In this document: positions 12,965-57,430 of the stretch, piece by piece
How the letters are laid out: each line of letters opens with the position of its first letter
How positions within the stretch are numbered: the stretch's first letter is position 1
From: Thermodesulfovibrionales bacterium
Lineage (GTDB): Bacteria > Nitrospirota > Thermodesulfovibrionia > Thermodesulfovibrionales > SM23-35
Reading direction: 5' to 3'
NCBI GenBank assembly: GCA_963715195.1
Contig: CAVQRT010000002.1
Location: 288,001 to 352,000 of the forward strand
DNA: 64,000 bases
Notes under the pieces: generated by a model
Told to the model about the DNA's origin: nothing
The model's database searches: none
What the model saw: only the letters and a program-made list of their open reading frames with translations
Program-made: the position numbers and the translations under genes

Positions 12965-14410
12965 TCAGCCTTTTATCACTCCCATCGGCCTCAACCGCGC
13001 AACCTTCCGTGAAATCCCCGCTTTATGAACCACATCGACAACATTGGTAATGTCTTTATACGCTTCTGACATTTCTTCCGCAAGTGTTTCACGCCCTGCA
13101 GACCTGACAATAATCCCTCTGTCCTCCAACTCTCTCCAGATCGCACGTCCCTTTGCCTTTTTGATCGCCTGATGCCTCGACATCACCCTGCCTGCGCCAT
13201 GACAGGTCGATCCAAAGGTCTCCTTCATCGCTCTTTCAGTTCCCAGGAGGACAAATGATGCCCTGCCCATGTCACCCGGAATCAGCACCGGCTGTCCGAG
13301 CGGTCTGTAAATCCCGGGCAATTCGGGGTGATTCGGGGGAAAAGCCCTTGTAGCGCCCTTCCGGTGAACTATCAGTTTCAGTCTTCTACCGTTCACCTCA
13401 TGCTCTTCAATTTTGGCAATATTATGAGCAACATCGTATATGAGACTCATGCCGAGTTGCCCCGGTGACATTCCAAATACGCTGATAAACGTCTCCCGCG
13501 CCCAGTGCATAATGCATTGTCTGTTTGCCCATGCATAATTAGCAGCCGCCCGCATTGCAGCGAGATAATCCAGGGCCTCGGGGCTTCCGACAGGTGCACA
13601 GGCAAGTTCCTTGTCCGGGAGGTCGATCTTATATTTCCTTACCGCCCGTTCCATAACCTCAAGGAAGTCGGTGCATACCTGATGACCAAACCCCCTCGAA
13701 CCGGTATGGATCATGACCGTGACCTGATCCCTGAAAAAGCCTAAACCGTTTGCTGCCGCCTCATCGTAAATCTCGTCGACGTACTGCACCTCAAGAAAAT
13801 GATTGCCTGATCCGAGAGTCCCCTGTTGAGCCCTGCCGCGTTCAAATGCTTTTGCACTAATGAGAGAGGGGTCTGCACCGTCTATGCATCCGCCCGACTC
13901 TGTTTTTTCAAGGTCTTCGGCATATCCAAACCCCTGCTCCACAGCCCAGCGCGCTCCTTTGAGGAGGAGTTTTCTTTCGGCTTCAGCATCGAGGCGTATT
14001 TTACCCTTTGAGCCGATACCCGATGGTATTTGATTCTGAAGGACCCCTACGAGGTCTTTGATCCTCGGGGCAACCTCAGCCCTTGTGAGGTTGCTCCTGA
14101 GGAGACGAACCCCTCAGTTTATGTCATAACCAACGCCGCCAGGCGAGATGATGCCGTCCTGCATATCAAAGGCTGCCACCCCTCCAATAGCAAAACCGTA
14201 GCCCGTATGGATATCAGGCATCGCCAGCGATGATTTCACGATGCCCGGGAGCATTGCGACATTCGCTACCTGATCGATTGCTTGCATTTCAAGCTCCTGT
14301 TCCAGAATATCATCGACATAAATGACACCGTTCACCCTCATCCCCGGCTTGAAATCAACAGGGATTTCTATCTTAGTACCATCAATTCTCCTCAGTTTCT
14401 CTATTGCCAT
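12965..14410 (-). CDS. rtcB: RNA ligase RtcB (481 aa), predicted selenoprotein with Sec99 at the catalytic Cys position
   Basis: Single frame: [21 protein letters not shown]-[TGA 14116..14114]-[47 protein letters not shown]-terminal VIKG; no other internal stop. Confidence 0.9.
14062..14103 (-). promoter_or_regulatory. Candidate bacterial SECIS hairpin inside the rtcB CDS
   Basis: Starts 11 nt after the UGA: UCCUC-A-GG-A-GCAACCUCA[CAAGGGC]UGAGGUUGC-C-CC-GAGGA (16 bp, including a perfect 9-bp upper stem). Confidence 0.62.
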
Positions 14411-14631
14411 ATTGACCTCCGGTTCAGGTTATCACAAAAAATACATCCAAAAGTGCGGATGTTGTGAGAAAAATTATTTTTCGATACCGTAGTGTACACT
14501 GAACCGATGGTTAAGTGCATATTTTTACCCAGAGAGCGATGAAAGATATTTCAATCAAATCATCGGGTTAAATAATTTTTTGTCCGCCTCGGCGGATTCG
14601 CAGAGGCAAAAGGGATGTCTGAACTTTTGGG

Positions 14632-15096
14632 TTATATATCAAAAATAATCTCAGTCTCCCATATACGATCTTTTTTTTCTATTTTCAGACGGTGATAGGT
14701 GGCAGCCTTAATGAGCAGCTTTCCTTCATGGCGCTCCGAATCGAACTCCTCGCCATATACGATTGCCGTGATTCTGAAAGCCTCACCCACGAGCAGACCT
14801 CCTCCTCGAGTGGGGAGGGTAATGGAGGTGGTGAATTCAGTGATAGTAATTTTTTTGCCGATAAATCCGTAGGTGTCAAAATGAAAAATCAGCTCATTCA
14901 GCCACGAAACAAGGAGGCCATCGAGCGAATGACTTTCGACCGAAACTGTTATCGATTTTTGATCGGTGAGCAGATCGGTATTCGTAATGAGGCTGTACAT
15001 TCCCAGCGCAGCATGAACGAAGAGATCCTGTCTGCTCTTTCCGAAAGCCCTTATCCCGGCATCACCCGCAACGTCAAGGATTTCAAACTTTTCCAT
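14632..15096 (-). CDS. Archease (RtcB activating cofactor)
   Basis: FEILDVAGDAGIRAFG, LLVSWLNELIF, GEEFD, IKAATYH, C-terminal IFDI; directly upstream of rtcB. Confidence 0.9.
   Translation of the reverse strand: MEKFEILDVAGDAGIRAFGKSRQDLFVHAALGMYSLITNTDLLTDQKSITVSVESHSLDGLLVSWLNELIFHFDTYGFIGKKITITEFTTSITLPTRGGGLLVGEAFRITAIVYGEEFDSERHEGKLLIKAATYHRLKIEKKDRIWETEIIFDI
14783..14834. repeat. Palindromic repeat embedded in-frame in archease
   Basis: TCACC...CCTCCTCCTCGAGTGGGGAGG...GGTGA; encodes TTSITLPTRGGGLLVGE. Confidence 0.62.
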
Positions 15097-38121: not shown

Positions 38122-39999
38122 TTATTTCAGCAGCAGTTTTCTGATATCGCCGACTCTGAGGGTGATCTTGTGCGAGTCGAGATATTCCAGGAGCGGAAGG
38201 GCATACTTCCGGGAGGTGTTGAGGATATCCCGGAATTCAGCAACAGTCATATCAGGTTTCTTTTTGAAAAAATTCTTTAGATTTGCGATCATCTCCTGAT
38301 GAACCGAAGAAGGCACATACATCGAATCGCTGATTCTCACCAGACTTCCGTCTTTCGCAAGAAGGTTCAGGATATCAGTGAGGCGTTTCATATCGAGTTT
38401 AAAGGTCTGAGAAAGTTCTTCCTTTAGGGGCGGCTGGAAACCGCTTTTTTCGAGGAGTACCAAAATGCTTGTCTTTACAGACTCATCGATCTGCGACAGG
38501 GAAGCTTTAAAAGTAGCAAGACGAACGAGTTCCTTGTCGATCACAATCTCTTTCACAGAATTCGCCAGATTACCGAAAAGCCGCGGTTCGATGGCAGTGC
38601 GGGCGCGGAGCTCCTCCTTGAGCATACCTGGCTTGAGCGGGTTTTTCCTGTGAAAATCTTCCATGATCTTGCGTATTGTCTCTCTGAAGGAATCGAGAGC
38701 ATTCTTATGAATCAGGATATCTTCGAACTGCATCAGGATTCCTTTTTCCCGCAATTCTTTCATGGCGTCCCGGATCGACGGAATCTCTGCCTTGATCCAG
38801 CCTTCAATCAGGAAAGAGCTGATACCATAGATGCCAGACCGTTTCACCTTTATAGCAATTTTATCGGATAACGTGCCTGTTTCAAAAGTTTGCAGATCAT
38901 CAAGACCCTCTTTATAACTCCTGCGGAACGAGAGCGGGTCCAGAACCTCACCGCCGCCAATCGTATCGACGGGAGAGAATCTCCTGATGATATACCGGTC
39001 AGCTGACATGGCGATGACCGGATCGCGAAGCCTGAACTGGCAGTAACAGGATTCATTCGCCTTCAGCTCATTCTGCCCGAAGAGGATAACCCGCGCAATA
39101 GTCTCTGATGTTCCCAGGTGAAAATGAACAAGGCTCTTGCTCTTCAGGACTGGAGCATCCATGAGCAGTTCCACCTTTGCATCGATCTTCCTTGTCGGAG
39201 TTAGACGCCCAGGTATCACAACCGTATCCCCCCTCTGGAGAGCTTCCTTGTCAACCCCCTGCAGATTGATCGCAACCCGCTGACCCGCATATGCTGTCTG
39301 AATGGATTTTCCATGACTGTGGAGACCGCGCACCTTGCTGTGGATTGCGCTTGGCAGGATATCGACATCCTGATCGACCGAGATGCTCCCTGAAACAGCA
39401 GTTCCGGTAACCACTGTCCCGAATCCCTTCAGGGTAAAAACCCTGTCTATGGGGAGTCTGAAGAGCCCCCTCGTCGGTTTTGGTTCAACCTGCAGGGCAA
39501 TCTCCTGTATCTTTTCTTTCAGGGCATCGAGGTTTAACATGGTTTTTGATGAGACAGGCAATACGGGTGTTCCATCGAGAAATGTCCCTCTTATAAAGTC
39601 TCTCACTTCATCCTCAACCAGTTCCAACCAGTCTTTTTCAACAAGGTCCGCCTTCGTGACTGCGACTAGTCCGGACTTTATCTTCAGGAGGTTGCAGATA
39701 TGGAGATGTTCCCGGCTCTGCGGCATGATCCCCTCGTCCGCAGCGATGACCAGAAGAACGAGGTCTATACCGCCTGCACCGGCAAGCATATTCTTTACGA
39801 GTCTTTCATGACCGGGGACATCGACAATCCCGACCGTCAGCCCGTCGGGATAGGAGAGGTCCGCAAATCCCAGGTCAATAGTAATTCCCCGTTCCTTCTC
39901 TTCTTTCAGCCTGTCCGGGTCGACGCCAGTCAAAGCCTTTACAAGAGAGCTCTTGCCGTGATCAATATGTCCGGCTGTGCCAAGAATTACATATCGCAT
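38122..39999 (-). CDS. selB: Selenocysteine-specific elongation factor
   Basis: [27 protein letters not shown]-terminal winged helices with [13 protein letters not shown]. Confidence 0.96.
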
Positions 40000-40071
40000 A
40001 TGCATTAATTATACCTTAACAGGAGTTTCAGGCAGGGAGTAGTATTTTTGCTTATTCGTGTCAGCAGCGTT

Positions 40072-42614: not shown

Positions 42615-42695
42615 ACTTGAATATTTTACCATAATGTCGGCGAGCAATTTGAGAAATTCCATTGACCTTATTTGTATTCTATGGTAGAAAATTAC

Positions 42696-44087
42696 ATGAA
42701 TGAGAAACAGCAGCTCCTCTCCATGCTCCCTTCCGTTGATGAAATTTTAAAGAGCTCACCTGGGTCAGCATTGCTGCATACCTATCCGAGAAAATTTGTC
42801 GTCCAGGGCATACGGCAAGGGATTGACCAAAAGAGAAGGGAAATCCTCTCGGGCAGTTCCACTGACCTATCAGGGGAAATTCTTGTAGCGGATATCGAAA
42901 ATATCATCGCACGCCTCTCCGCATTGAGCCTGAAACCGCTTATCAATGCGACCGGCGTCGTCATTCATACAAACCTTGGCCGGTCTACACTCTCTGACCG
43001 GGCACTTGAGAACATCAGGCGGGTTTCGGAGAGTTATTCCAACCTTGAATATGATATCGAACAGGGGAAAAGGGGGAAACGGTATACCCATATCAAACGG
43101 ATCCTCCGCGAGATTACCGGAGCAGAAGATGCGCTTGTCGTAAACAACAATGCGGCTGCGGTGCTTCTCTGTCTCAACACCTTTTCGAAGGGGAGAGAAG
43201 TTATTGTTTCAAGAGGTGAACTGGTCGAGATCGGCGGCTCCTTCCGAATGCCCGACGTCATGGCGTCCAGCGGCGCCATACTTCGTGAAGTCGGCACGAC
43301 AAATAAGACCCATCTGCATGACTATGAAAATGCGATCACCGAACATACGTCGCTCATTTTGAAAATCCATCGTTCCAATTTCCGGATTGTGGGATTTACC
43401 GATGAGGTCTCTGTAGAAGATCTCGTGTCTCTCGGCAGAAAGCATAAGATTCCTGTGATGTTCGACCTCGGCAGCGGATGTCTCATCGATTTACGACAGT
43501 ATGGCTTTTATGATGAACCTGCTGTGCAGGAGGTCGTAAAAACAGGCGTTGATTTGACTACGTTCAGCGGGGATAAACTTCTCGGCGGCCCGCAGGGTGG
43601 TATCATCGTGGGGAAAAAAGAACATATAGAACAAATACAGAAAAACCCAGTAACCAGGGCTGTCAGGATAGACAAACTGACCCTTGCTGGGTTTGAAGCT
43701 ACGCTTATGGAATACCTTGATGAAGAAAAGGCAGTTGCCGCAATTCCAACACTCAGAATGCTCCTGCAGAAACCTGAGGAGATACGGGCGCGGGCGAACA
43801 AGATAGCCAGGAGATTAAAGAAAGCAATTAGCAACGCACACATCCGGGTAATGCCAGATTCATCGAGAGCCGGCGGCGGCGCATTACCGGAGAGGGATCT
43901 GCCAACGTTTGTGACAGCGGTAAGGACAGACAACATGCATGTAAACGAACTCGAAGAAAAACTGAGAAAGGGGACCCCCGCAGTCATAACGCGGATAAAG
44001 GAAGATACCCTCATCCTGGACGCAAGGACCGTGAGAGACCATGATATTCCTGTCATTATACAAAGAATAAAGTCGGCCCTGTCCTAG
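42696..44087 (+). CDS. selA: L-seryl-tRNA(Sec) selenium transferase
   Basis: [46 protein letters not shown]. Confidence 0.96.
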
Positions 44088-54569: not shown

Positions 54570-54938
54570 ATATGTTATTTGTTGGGAATGTCTTAACCAA
54601 TAAAATCAAGAAAAGTGGTTGCTACCTTCGGGGTGAAAGACTCATAGGAATCTCAAGATATCAGAAACACACCTAATTCCTGAAACAGAGATTGATACTG
54701 TCAACTATTTTTTGGATTCCTGATAACTACAGTTTTTATTATTTCTTCAGACGTATTATTGGAAGCAGGTGCCGTTGAGAAAAATGCCGTGTTACCTGCG
54801 GGGCGAAAGATGAACGGTATCCCGAAGATCCTTAAGATGCAACCCCATTTTCTGAAATCTTTATTTAACTATTTATTATAATGGGGACAGACTTCATACA
54901 ATCAATAATAAACAGATATTATTCCTCAAGGATACTAA

Positions 54939-55142
54939 TTGGGTACTCTTAATAATATTTTCAGCCTTGTTTTTGGAATTAACCTTATTGTGGTTGGGTT
55001 GGTTGCACTCATAGTAGGCATTGTATCCTTGACAAAGCGAGATAAGTCCTTCAAGAAACTGACTTCAATCGTTTATATTATTGCTGGAGCTGCAGCTGTT
55101 TACTTTGGTATTGTTTTATCAAGAAGCTCTTTCAGCATGTGA
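54939..55142 (+). CDS. Small two-TM membrane protein
   Basis: Two hydrophobic helices; AAGGA before TTG. Confidence 0.5.
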   Translation: MGTLNNIFSLVFGINLIVVGLVALIVGIVSLTKRDKSFKKLTSIVYIIAGAAAVYFGIVLSRSSFSM

Positions 55143-55843
55143 CGATCCCCTCAAGATAATCTCGGTGCTGTTTTTCGGATTCCAATGTATAATCAAACAT
55201 TTGAAGGGCTTCCTTATGGTTCTCCGACTTTATCTGATCAATAAACAGTGGGCATGTCACATTAATATCTTTAATTTCCCTATCGGCAGCATTCCAGAGC
55301 GTCATGATAAGCAATTCCCCCCTCCTGTAATGCTGATTTAAAAATCTTGCCCCATAATGCGATATTTCGATTGGAAAACCTTAAATTGTAATTAAGGAAG
55401 TTATGAACTCATATCTATTGATTCTGTAAGAAAAATTCTGATACATAATGAAGCCAAACTCTTACAAAAAAATCAGAATTATACTGATACTTTACAGGTT
55501 TCGTGAGGTATATAGTTGATACAGAACGAAGGTGAATAAAAAAGCAAGTGAGCATTTCTCAATAATTCCTAACGTAGTGCATTAAATCAGCGAGCAAAAA
55601 AGTGTCTTTTGTGTTCTCAAGAAAATTGGGCAGAGATGAAGTCCTAAGATGAAACATCGCCCTGATTTGAAAGCTTATCCATTTTTATGAGGAGGTGGTG
55701 TCCTATGATTGTTCGGACAAGACTTCGGCGTTTGAGAGACGATCTTCAAATGATCTCTTTTGCTAAATGTTGTCATATAACCAGTAATGAAAGGTGTGCA
55801 ATTCCTGATATAAGATGATCAAAAACAGAAGGAGGAGGTTAAA

Positions 55844-56227
55844 ATGAAAAGGAACGTTTCAAAGCATTTTCCCCTATTGTTTTCGGTGGGTCTGGTGATT
55901 GCCTTTATGCTCGTCTTTTGTGGCGTGACAGGGGCTCAGCAATTTCCTGGCATTCCCAAACTTCCAGGTGGGCTCAATATCCCTAGTTTATCGGGCGCGA
56001 AAGCAGGGTTTGCCGGCTTGGACGCATTGAATACCGCGAAGGAATTATATGGGCAGAAGGACAAGGCAAGCTATCCGACTCCAAACATTGCGGTGAGTGG
56101 TAACCATATAGTCATTGCTTGGCCAAATGGGGTAGTAACAATAGAGACTATTGCTGATGACGGGACTCTAAAACGCACTGTTTTAGGACCCCCGTCTGAA
56201 AATAATATCCCCCCCGATAAAAAGTAA
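55844..56227 (+). CDS. Exported hypothetical protein
   Basis: Strong GGAGGAGG RBS and signal peptide. Confidence 0.7.
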   Translation: MKRNVSKHFPLLFSVGLVIAFMLVFCGVTGAQQFPGIPKLPGGLNIPSLSGAKAGFAGLDALNTAKELYGQKDKASYPTPNIAVSGNHIVIAWPNGVVTIETIADDGTLKRTVLGPPSENNIPPDKK

Positions 56228-56531
56228 TCGTTACTCACTCCTGGGGATAAGGTATGCGTAACACAATACGGCAGGTTTCTTATGCGGAGATAGTTCAGTA
56301 AGTGAAAGGAAGCATTTAGAAGACTGAAATAGTCATAAACACCACCTTTTCATCTGTAATTGCTGGAGGCAATGAGGGGAAGAAAAGGCTAATGTTATTA
56401 GTCCAACGGCCTTTGATACATAGAGTAAGAATAAAAGACCCTTGGTTATACGGGTATTTTTCGGGAAGAGAGAAATTGATATGCTCTATTTCACTTTTTA
56501 ATTTTTCAACAATATAAGACGGAGGATTACC

Positions 56532-56981
56532 ATGTTTAAAGAATTCAAGGAATTTGCAATGAAAGGGAATATGGTCGACATGGCTGTCGGAATCATTATC
56601 GGTGCAGCTTTCGGTACTATTATCAGTTCACTCGTGGCAGATATCATCATGCCACCTATCGGCCTCCTCTTAGGAAATGTCGATTTTGCTAACCTTTTTA
56701 TCCTTCTCAAGGAAGGAACCCTTCCCGGTCCGTATAGCTCTCCCGTTATTGCCAAGACCGCCGGTGCGGTAACACTTAACTATGGTGTTTTTATCAATAC
56801 CATCGTCAGTTTCCTTATTGTTGCCTTTGCCATATTCATTCTTGTGAAGAACGTAAACAAAATGAAAAAGCAACAGGAAGCACCCCCCGCGGAGCCGACG
56901 ACCAAGGAGTGCCCCTTCTGTTTCTCCGTGATACCGATCAAAGCAGTAAGGTGTGGGTATTGCACATCGGAACTCAAATAG
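56532..56981 (+). CDS. mscL: Large-conductance mechanosensitive channel with C-terminal zinc ribbon
   Basis: [31 protein letters not shown]; tail CPFC..CGYC. Confidence 0.95.
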
Positions 56982-57430
56982 CAAAGTCTCGCTTTTTGCA
57001 GAGGAATTGCAAAAGAGGAGAGTACTCATCCTAAATCATAAGGACTTATGGGAATCAGAGAGCGTACTAAGATTTTGAATGGCAATATTATAATTACAGG
57101 TGTTCATGGGAAAAATACCTCAGTGACTGTGGAGATACCAGTTCATGAGAAAAAGAAGAAAGAGAGCTATTTATTAAATAATACTCCATAAATACTGCTT
57201 CTTCATGGAAAAACACAGTCCTAAGAAATTCTACCTCGCAACAATTACTAATAGGCTTCCTTCCACAACTGGCGTGGCGGAATAACGCTGATTTGAAAGA
57301 CACGCGATGCCGCGTTATTGGTTCGGAGACAACCCCCCTTCCTCCTACCGCAAATTTAACAGTTCTTGGAATACTGCACATTATACCTGTTAAATCACAT
57401 TCCCAAATGAGTATTATCTGAGTTTCCGGC

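Follow-up and report, generated by a model that had tools for sequence, protein, structure and literature searches.

Here we report that rtcB, the gene for the RNA ligase RtcB in a 64,000-nucleotide (nt) stretch of a Thermodesulfovibrionales genome (contig CAVQRT010000002.1, positions 288,001 to 352,000; the whole of this stretch is called the window below), carries an in-frame TGA at the codon for the cysteine that bridges the two metal ions of the enzyme, and that it shows every feature by which a bacterial selenoprotein gene is recognized at the sequence level. These features are the pairing of UGA with Cys codons at one alignment column that is conserved on both sides, a stem-loop directly 3' of the UGA that constitutes a predicted selenocysteine insertion sequence (SECIS), and the presence of selA, selB, selC and selD in the genome. 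In our view, SelB, the elongation factor specific for selenocysteine (Sec), would insert Sec at this codon, UGA99, as a metal ligand of a non-redox RNA ligase, and we put the probability of this at roughly 0.88. The proposal that rtcB is a selenoprotein gene whose Sec serves as a metal ligand had been made in an original prediction based on the letters of the window, and all the sequence-level checks that were run spoke in its favor. The evidence consists of the codon itself, its recurrence, a downstream hairpin with covariation, purifying selection, the Sec machinery and the lack of a second rtcB, all of which were observed directly.

A TGA codon at the metal-bridging position of RtcB

The minus-strand translation of positions 12965..14410 contains only one internal TGA, at codon 99. 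Under translation table 11 the frame appears as two open reading frames (ORFs), 14114..14410 (98 residues) and 12965..13942 (325 residues, starting at an internal GTG), and the public gene calls split rtcB into exactly these pieces. Translation bore out the original prediction that both pieces lie in the same frame, that the 57 codons separating them are free of stops, and that together they encode 481 residues with UGA as codon 99. The read-through product belongs to the RtcB family, as it matches the Pfam profile PF01139 over its full length (590.1 bits with a cut-off of 27; residues 47-481 on profile positions 1-426 of 426) and has the metal-binding and guanylylation residues of the family.

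Against the solved structure of Pyrococcus horikoshii RtcB (PDB 4dwr/1uc2) the product scores 624 bits, and Cys98 of that enzyme stands opposite codon 99, the position at which the UGA had been predicted to lie. The other active-site residues were also rightly described as intact, although their numbering needed a small correction: they are D96, H204, H235, H329 and H404, equivalent to Asp95, His203, His234, His329 and His404 of P. horikoshii, which function in metal binding and guanylylation. Among 56 aligned orthologues the first four are present in all sequences and H404 in 55. According to passages of a review of RtcB (PMC10630183), the P. horikoshii enzyme holds one Mn2+ ion through Cys98, His234 and His329 and the second through Asp95, Cys98 and His203, which agrees with the bridging role that the original prediction had assigned to this Cys. 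Passages of this review and of a second paper (PMC12263435) describe the Cys as invariant and as a ligand of both metal ions, and the review reports that RtcB in which it is replaced is dead as a ligase. At this position the window gene has TGA, neither TGC nor TGT. Metal ligation of the Cys98 type would hold for the rtcB product only if the TGA encodes Sec, a chemical analogue of Cys. A protein search in which stops were read through found no second rtcB in the genome, which is estimated to be 97.8% complete.

The TGA codon recurs among orthologues in several phyla

The rtcB protein was searched, with stops read through, against its own genome (G000) and 60 relatives, and 58 of these 61 genomes gave a match at E <= 1e-50. 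The orthologue set comprises 57 of the 62 matched rows and omits five partial or split ones, from G046, G020 contig 32 (two rows), G032 contig 82 and G015. In these 57 orthologous loci of the order, the codon aligned with codon 99 is TGA in 15 cases, TGC in 25 and TGT in 17, with conservation on both flanks, which is the pattern that the original prediction had proposed to look for. TGA-type rtcB genes occur in eight of the 13 families sampled in the order. Within the genus of the window, one genome (G003, 89% identical) has TGA and two (G001 and G002) have TGC. In one TGA locus (L056, G041:C41), 25 consecutive N just before the GYDIN-TGA motif shift the apparent frame; they stand for a scaffold gap or for masked sequence, and this locus was handled apart from the other TGA loci.

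A quick maximum likelihood tree was built with IQ-TREE, with the Sec/Cys column masked and branch support given by the Shimodaira-Hasegawa-like approximate likelihood ratio test (SH-aLRT), so that counts of switches are rough. Parsimony places nine changes of the TGA label on this tree, at least three of which are forced by strongly supported branches. One genome, G055, holds two rtcB genes, one of the TGA type (contig 80, L053) and one of the TGC type (contig 45, L068), and the latter forms a long branch among the sequences of another family, a placement that suggests either horizontal acquisition or a mix-up in binning.

The pattern G-[YF]-D-I-N-TGA-G-V-R has at least 120 matches in a collection of species genomes, of which 80 loci, a few of them in genomes shared with the set of relatives, were examined as a wide set. 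All 80 are rtcB genes, 52-83% identical to that of the window, with the TGA at the same column, and in 71 of them the frame stays open for 378-383 codons after the TGA, while six run off the end of a contig and three stop early. According to the record titles, these loci come from Nitrospirota (19), Desulfobacterota or 'Deltaproteobacteria' (39), Acidobacteriota (14), Binatia (two) and unclassified bacteria (two), with one each from Eisenbacteria, Gemmatimonadales, Pseudomonadota and Polyangiaceae. As far as these comparisons tell, the TGA of rtcB is not a product of chance, decay or assembly error; it is not chance because the same column is TGA in 15 of the 57 loci of the order and in all 80 wide loci.

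The region beyond the TGA is under purifying selection

For the window gene and its TGA-type relative in G003, the ratio of nonsynonymous to synonymous substitution rates (dN/dS) amounts to 0.108 before the TGA (codons 1-98) and to 0.091 after it (codons 100-481), at a dS of about 0.65. A second pair of Sec-type genes gave 0.123 upstream and 0.061 downstream of the TGA, and a pair of Cys-type genes 0.079 and 0.100 for the same two segments. No ratio was taken from pairs with saturated dS, and two pairs were left out, L017/L034 as non-collinear and L046/L047 because its rows are one codon out of register. Since dN/dS is about 0.1 on both sides, the part of rtcB after the apparent stop is as constrained as the part before it; relaxed selection had been named in the original prediction as a sign that would speak against it.

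The TGA, for which confirmation in raw reads had been proposed there, is also present in contigs from two public runs belonging to different studies (2015 and 2025), which span 14114..14116 without a variant letter. In a further run, X6, no contig crosses the TGA. An RNA run, X20, yielded only two contigs of 151 nt (13243-13393 and 13576-13726), too little for a claim of transcription and possibly explained by carry-over of DNA.

A SECIS-like stem-loop follows the TGA codon

The core of the long, interrupted stem-loop predicted downstream of the TGA begins 10 nt 3' of the UGA in the window and at about the same distance in all 15 TGA forms of the order. The 66 nt from the TGA fold with -31.4 kcal/mol in the window (RNAfold), and the mean minimum free energy (MFE) of the corresponding stretch is -30.7 kcal/mol in the 15 TGA forms versus -14.1 kcal/mol in the 42 Cys forms (Mann-Whitney p = 7e-8). 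An MFE of -24.8 kcal/mol or lower is reached by all 15 TGA forms and by three of the 42 Cys forms. In the TGA alignment, 84.5% of the cells can pair, and seven pairs are changed on both sides, a number that none of 500 shuffles matched; sliding the partners by one to three columns lowers the pairing to 45-60%. The outer helix of the extended structure, with 85.6% of its cells paired and no pair changed on both sides, has weaker support than the core.

Outside the Nitrospirota, all 60 TGA forms have one shorter hairpin of at least 6 bp at +12 to +41, over 39 distinct peptide contexts, and its apical loop is mostly GGUC or GGUU, GGUC being the commonest (21/60). GGUC is the loop of the SECIS of Escherichia coli fdhF. 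This hairpin of the other phyla (Desulfobacterota, Acidobacteriota and others) covaries across the 39 peptide contexts. There are thus two predicted SECIS designs at one codon, because the hairpin outside the Nitrospirota differs from that of the window's lineage and is shorter. When compared with dinucleotide shuffles, the 79 of the 80 wide loci that were long enough gave a mean z-score of -1.19, versus +0.03 for a control stretch (p = 6e-5), a modest value explained by the shortness of the hairpins outside the Nitrospirota.

The three Cys-type genes with a TGA-like stem-loop are L025 in G048 (-31.6 kcal/mol), L024 in G016 (-27.6 kcal/mol) and L069 in G050 (-26.8 kcal/mol). The tree shows L024 as the sister of a TGA form, places L069 in a small clade that includes two TGA forms, and puts L025 at an unresolved node next to a TGA pair. 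These three genes may be recent conversions from Sec to Cys that retain a fossil SECIS.

A comparison of alignment columns revealed no residues that are diagnostic of Sec versus Cys forms. Enrichment in TGA forms is strongest for R116 (13/14, versus 19/42 in Cys forms), R118 (7/14 versus 2/42) and V123 (13/14 versus 14/42), whose codons correspond approximately to window positions 14042-14065. The codons of R116 and R118 belong to the 3' arm of the stem-loop, and that of V123 follows shortly after the outer helix; the enrichment of the two arginines therefore probably reflects constraints on the RNA, whose structure seems to limit the choice of amino acids at these three positions.

Sec machinery and genomic context

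The window itself encodes SelA and SelB, as had been recognized from its sequence and was confirmed with Pfam, and the other two genes of the pathway, which the original prediction had expected elsewhere in the genome, were both found. The selC gene lies on contig 15 and is the single match above the cut-off (tRNA-Sec, 73.4 bits); ARAGORN identifies it as tRNA-SeC(tca) and draws an acceptor stem of 8 bp, a UCA anticodon and a G before the CCA end. The selD gene (369 bits, G000:C7:136569-137492) is itself of the Sec type, with a TGA in RTCG-TGA-AAKIGP. Two molybdopterin oxidoreductases (G000:C7:304895-306238 and G000:C3:45068-46477) have a TGA at the formate-dehydrogenase Sec site, in the motifs ARY-TGA-HSS and ARI-TGA-HSA. 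A hairpin follows the TGA in selD and in both oxidoreductase genes, and it is of the GGUC type in the fdhA-like gene. The code is not globally changed, since TGA ends 14 of the 51 Pfam-supported ORFs of the window, including rtcB with its stop at 12965..12967, in line with the earlier remark that UGA serves as a normal stop in other genes. As tRNA-Sec is present in 55 of the 61 genomes of the order, its co-occurrence with TGA-type rtcB is uninformative as a discriminator. Many relatives have second or third tRNA-Sec-like matches of 50-67 bits beside a main one of about 70-77 bits (for example G038:C2:51094-51184, G001:C6:288-382 and G053:C36:66663-66753), which could be further copies of selC or unusual long-arm tRNAs.

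The gene for archease, the activator of RtcB, lies directly upstream of rtcB in the window (Table 1) and adjoins it in 69 of the 80 wide Sec loci and in 20 of 30 loci of the relatives, some loci being cut by contig ends. The intergenic region between archease and rtcB contains, at 14449-14497, a dispersed repeat of about 48 nt; blastn-short detected 19 further incomplete copies of it, 25-50 nt long and with 87-100% identity, spread over ten contigs of the same genome. Over the repeat, the contigs of three metagenome runs add up to a depth about 5-11 times that of its flanks, and many contigs end there in unlike sequence. The repeat could be an element like the repetitive extragenic palindromic (REP) sequences, or a shared promoter or terminator. 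No convincing further selenoprotein candidate was found in the window, since the ORFs lengthened by reading through TGA gave matches that are antisense shadows or neighboring genes in the same frame. A 2.9-kb region of the window, 54570-57430, has only small ORFs (up to 149 residues) and contains no repeats of 20 nt or longer and no Rfam match.

Table 1. Coordinates of rtcB, its predicted recoding elements and associated genes in the window
Feature	Position	Strand	Basis
rtcB coding sequence, 481 codons plus TGA stop (12965..12967)	12965..14410	minus	translation through internal TGA; Pfam; PDB match
In-frame TGA, codon 99, proposed Sec codon	14114..14116	minus	column of metal-bridging Cys98 of P. 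horikoshii
GGAGG ribosome-binding site, 5 nt before ATG (14408..14410)	14416..14420	minus	sequence reading
SECIS-like stem-loop core, 16 bp with unpaired A residues; apical loop 14079..14085	14062..14103	minus	RNAfold, covariation
Extended stem-loop with outer 6-bp helix (14108..14113 / 14051..14056)	14051..14113	minus	RNAfold, covariation
Archease (RtcB activator), directly upstream of rtcB	14632..15096	minus	Pfam PF01951, 122.7 bits
selB, Sec-specific elongation factor with C-terminal winged-helix domains	38122..40005	minus	Pfam GTP_EFTU, Beta-barrel_SelB, SelB-wing_2, SelB-wing_3
selA, selenocysteine synthase	42672..44087	plus	Pfam SelA, 530.6 bits; Se-cys_synth_N

A model for the decoding of UGA99 and its alternatives

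We infer the actual insertion of Sec at UGA99, and its use to the enzyme, from the comparisons above. According to our model, the stem-loop located about 10 nt past UGA99 in the archease-rtcB mRNA would recruit SelB carrying guanosine triphosphate (GTP) and Sec-tRNA(Sec) during translation, so that UGA99 would be decoded as Sec instead of as a stop and the full RtcB of 481 residues would be made. Sec99 would then take the place of the Cys that ligates both metal ions of this GTP-dependent 3'-phosphate/5'-OH RNA ligase, and a selenolate would thus coordinate the metals of a non-redox enzyme that works together with the neighboring archease. Our leading guess as to the benefit is that Sec would provide a ligand that resists irreversible oxidative inactivation, that it would alter the metal preference, or both. 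Resistance to oxidation is proposed because the active-site Cys of RtcB is sensitive to oxidation and is shielded in animals by the oxidoreductase PYROXD1, as passages of two papers describe (PMC12263435, PMC10630183).

Several observations weigh against this model. The TGA genome G003 (680 contigs) has no tRNA-Sec above the cut-off, and three of the 80 wide loci (L114, L141 and L143) end early after the TGA. The related genomes are non-independent samples, and the sequence check concerns assembled contigs rather than raw reads, one of the two runs possibly being the source sample. As to the stem-loop, the Cys alignment still pairs at 66.6% of its cells on the same structure, which implies that some pairing potential is inherent in the coding sequence; its two-sided changes were matched by 269 of 500 shuffles. 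The GC content of the stretch is higher in TGA forms than in Cys forms (58% versus 46%). The hairpin of the window's lineage, furthermore, has a purine-rich apical loop of 7-9 nt and lacks a GGUC-type loop, even though such a loop is present after the TGA in the fdhA-like gene of the same genome and in rtcB genes of other phyla. Finally, engineered P. horikoshii RtcB with Sec98 cleaved itself spontaneously, according to passages of the paper describing it (PMC4150793), so tolerance of Sec at this position cannot be taken for granted.

Decoding of the UGA as Cys or another residue, through a Sec-like tRNA charged with Cys or through a SelA that uses thiophosphate, would result in an ordinary Cys-type RtcB. 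Such tRNAs exist, all other orthologues have Cys at this position, and several relatives have second tRNA-Sec-like matches of 55-67 bits. However, the single tRNA-Sec match of G000 has the 8-bp acceptor stem, the UCA anticodon and the G before CCA described above, the genome contains selA, a Sec-type selD and genes for classical selenoenzymes, and a costly system for a residue that can be reached by changing one base is not parsimonious. We therefore consider this alternative improbable.

Slightly less probable still is the view that the UGA mostly terminates translation, as a selenium-gated switch or in order to produce the 98-residue N-terminal product, so that full-length RtcB is made rarely or never. 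The UGA does come early in the gene, and release factor 2 invariably competes for the codon with Sec insertion. Yet purifying selection acts on the 382 codons after the UGA just as it does on the 98 before it, the first in-frame start past the TGA is a GTG 57 codons on, with no separate C-terminal product evident, and the 98-residue piece lacks H204, H235, H329 and the guanylylated H404, that is, four of the five other active-site residues checked. Moreover, frequent termination would still need read-through to account for the conservation, and it therefore modifies the Sec explanation rather than replacing it.

Inactivation of rtcB by a nonsense mutation from TGC or TGT to TGA, or an error of sequencing or assembly, is the least probable alternative and is largely refuted: TGA is one base away from either Cys codon, the public gene calls hold the two separate pieces and three of the 80 wide loci have truncated downstream frames, but the same TGA is found in 15 of 57 orthologues and at least 120 pattern matches in species genomes, dN/dS is about 0.1 on both sides at a dS of 0.65, the catalytic residues are all intact, the covarying hairpin is specific to TGA forms, the contigs of two studies agree, and this is the sole rtcB found in the genome and lies beside an intact archease gene.

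Returning to Sec insertion at UGA99, a broader reading joins these observations. Sec-RtcB would be a widespread uncatalogued selenoprotein family, present in at least the Nitrospirota, Desulfobacterota and Acidobacteriota, in which the ligand shared by the two metals of a non-redox, GTP-dependent RNA ligase is selenium in place of sulfur. The lineages would have switched repeatedly between Sec and Cys and would use two SECIS designs in different phyla, and Sec would perhaps be a bacterial alternative to protection by PYROXD1, in that it resists irreversible oxidation or shifts the metal preference. To this reading taken as a whole we give even odds.

Literature status and significance

No natural Sec-containing RtcB was found in the openly searchable literature, a search outside which lay several catalogue supplements and the subscription-only literature; this was the last of the checks proposed in the original prediction. 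Combining RtcB or RNA ligase with selenocysteine or selenoprotein led only to the paper on the engineered U98 enzyme (PMC4150793) and to unrelated papers. The main text of the 2026 review on the selenoproteome of prokaryotes (PMC13188914), whose supplement was outside that search, yielded no 'RtcB' and contains 'ligase' zero times. Both words likewise occur zero times in the main text and one supplement of the BSepDB paper (PMC13326102), in the deep-Sep paper and its supplements, in the supplements of the 2016 ISME J survey and in the main text of the 2022 review. Among the NCBIfam matches of the window protein there is no Sec-specific RtcB model.

RtcB is the universal 3'-phosphate RNA ligase, which acts in tRNA splicing and RNA repair and, in animals, in XBP1 splicing, and its metal-bridging Cys is known, from passages of two papers (PMC12263435, PMC10630183), as the weak point of the enzyme under oxidation. 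If Sec insertion is confirmed, a non-redox nucleic-acid enzyme would join a selenoproteome that is dominated by oxidoreductases, and nature would have provided an experiment on the replacement of sulfur by selenium at a metal site. As the Sec and Cys forms in one genus are 83-89% identical, they can be compared directly. It would also mean that there is a blind spot in annotation, since split gene calls make such genomes appear to have no intact RtcB. The two predicted hairpin designs at one codon would be useful for improving models of bacterial SECIS elements.

Comparison with known systems

The best NCBIfam match of the window protein is the model of intein-containing RtcB (NF038162; 778 bits, below the cut-off of 1150 bits), and, according to passages of PMC4150793, the intein junction of P. 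horikoshii RtcB is Cys98. An intein is ruled out for the window gene: its 481-residue protein is collinear with the extein, and the match consists of two stretches that flank the intein region. In one relative, the rtcB match (G046:C1:359341-360537) lies within an open frame of 971 residues, and this gene probably carries an intein at the same Cys position, given that the best NCBIfam match of the window protein is the intein-containing model.

Compared with Cys-type RtcB proteins of known structure, those of P. horikoshii (PH1602; PDB 1uc2, 4dwq and 4dwr), Thermus thermophilus (TTHA1785; 2epg) and humans (RTCB; 7p3b and 8odo), the window protein is alike in family, in length and in the sequence that defines the fold, it shares their Asp and His residues for metal binding and guanylylation, and it likewise has archease as its partner. 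The difference is that those enzymes use Cys as a ligand of both metals, whereas here there is a UGA followed by a SECIS-like hairpin. Closest in terms of the residue itself is the engineered P. horikoshii RtcB U98, which has Sec at the identical position of the same family. As described in passages of the paper (PMC4150793), that enzyme was the product of an artificial, EF-Tu-dependent UAG system in E. coli without a SECIS, and it spontaneously cleaved a peptide bond nearby. The proposed Sec codon of the window gene, in contrast, would be natural, linked to a SECIS and conserved in many lineages.

With the catalogued bacterial selenoproteins (BSepDB, with 111 families and subfamilies, PMC13326102; 2026 review, PMC13188914), rtcB shares the UGA/Cys pair, the downstream hairpin and selABCD. 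The catalogued families are mostly redox proteins, whereas RtcB is an RNA ligase that acts by nucleotidyl transfer. Sec is a metal ligand in selenoenzymes such as formate dehydrogenase (Mo/W-Se) and [NiFeSe] hydrogenase. Selenium would be a direct ligand of the catalytic metal in RtcB as it is in these enzymes, and the genome studied here also has TGA-containing genes resembling formate dehydrogenase. These selenoenzymes are nevertheless redox enzymes, whereas the metals of RtcB activate the chemistry of GTP and phosphate, and the ligand, which would be Sec99, bridges two ions of the Mn2+ type.

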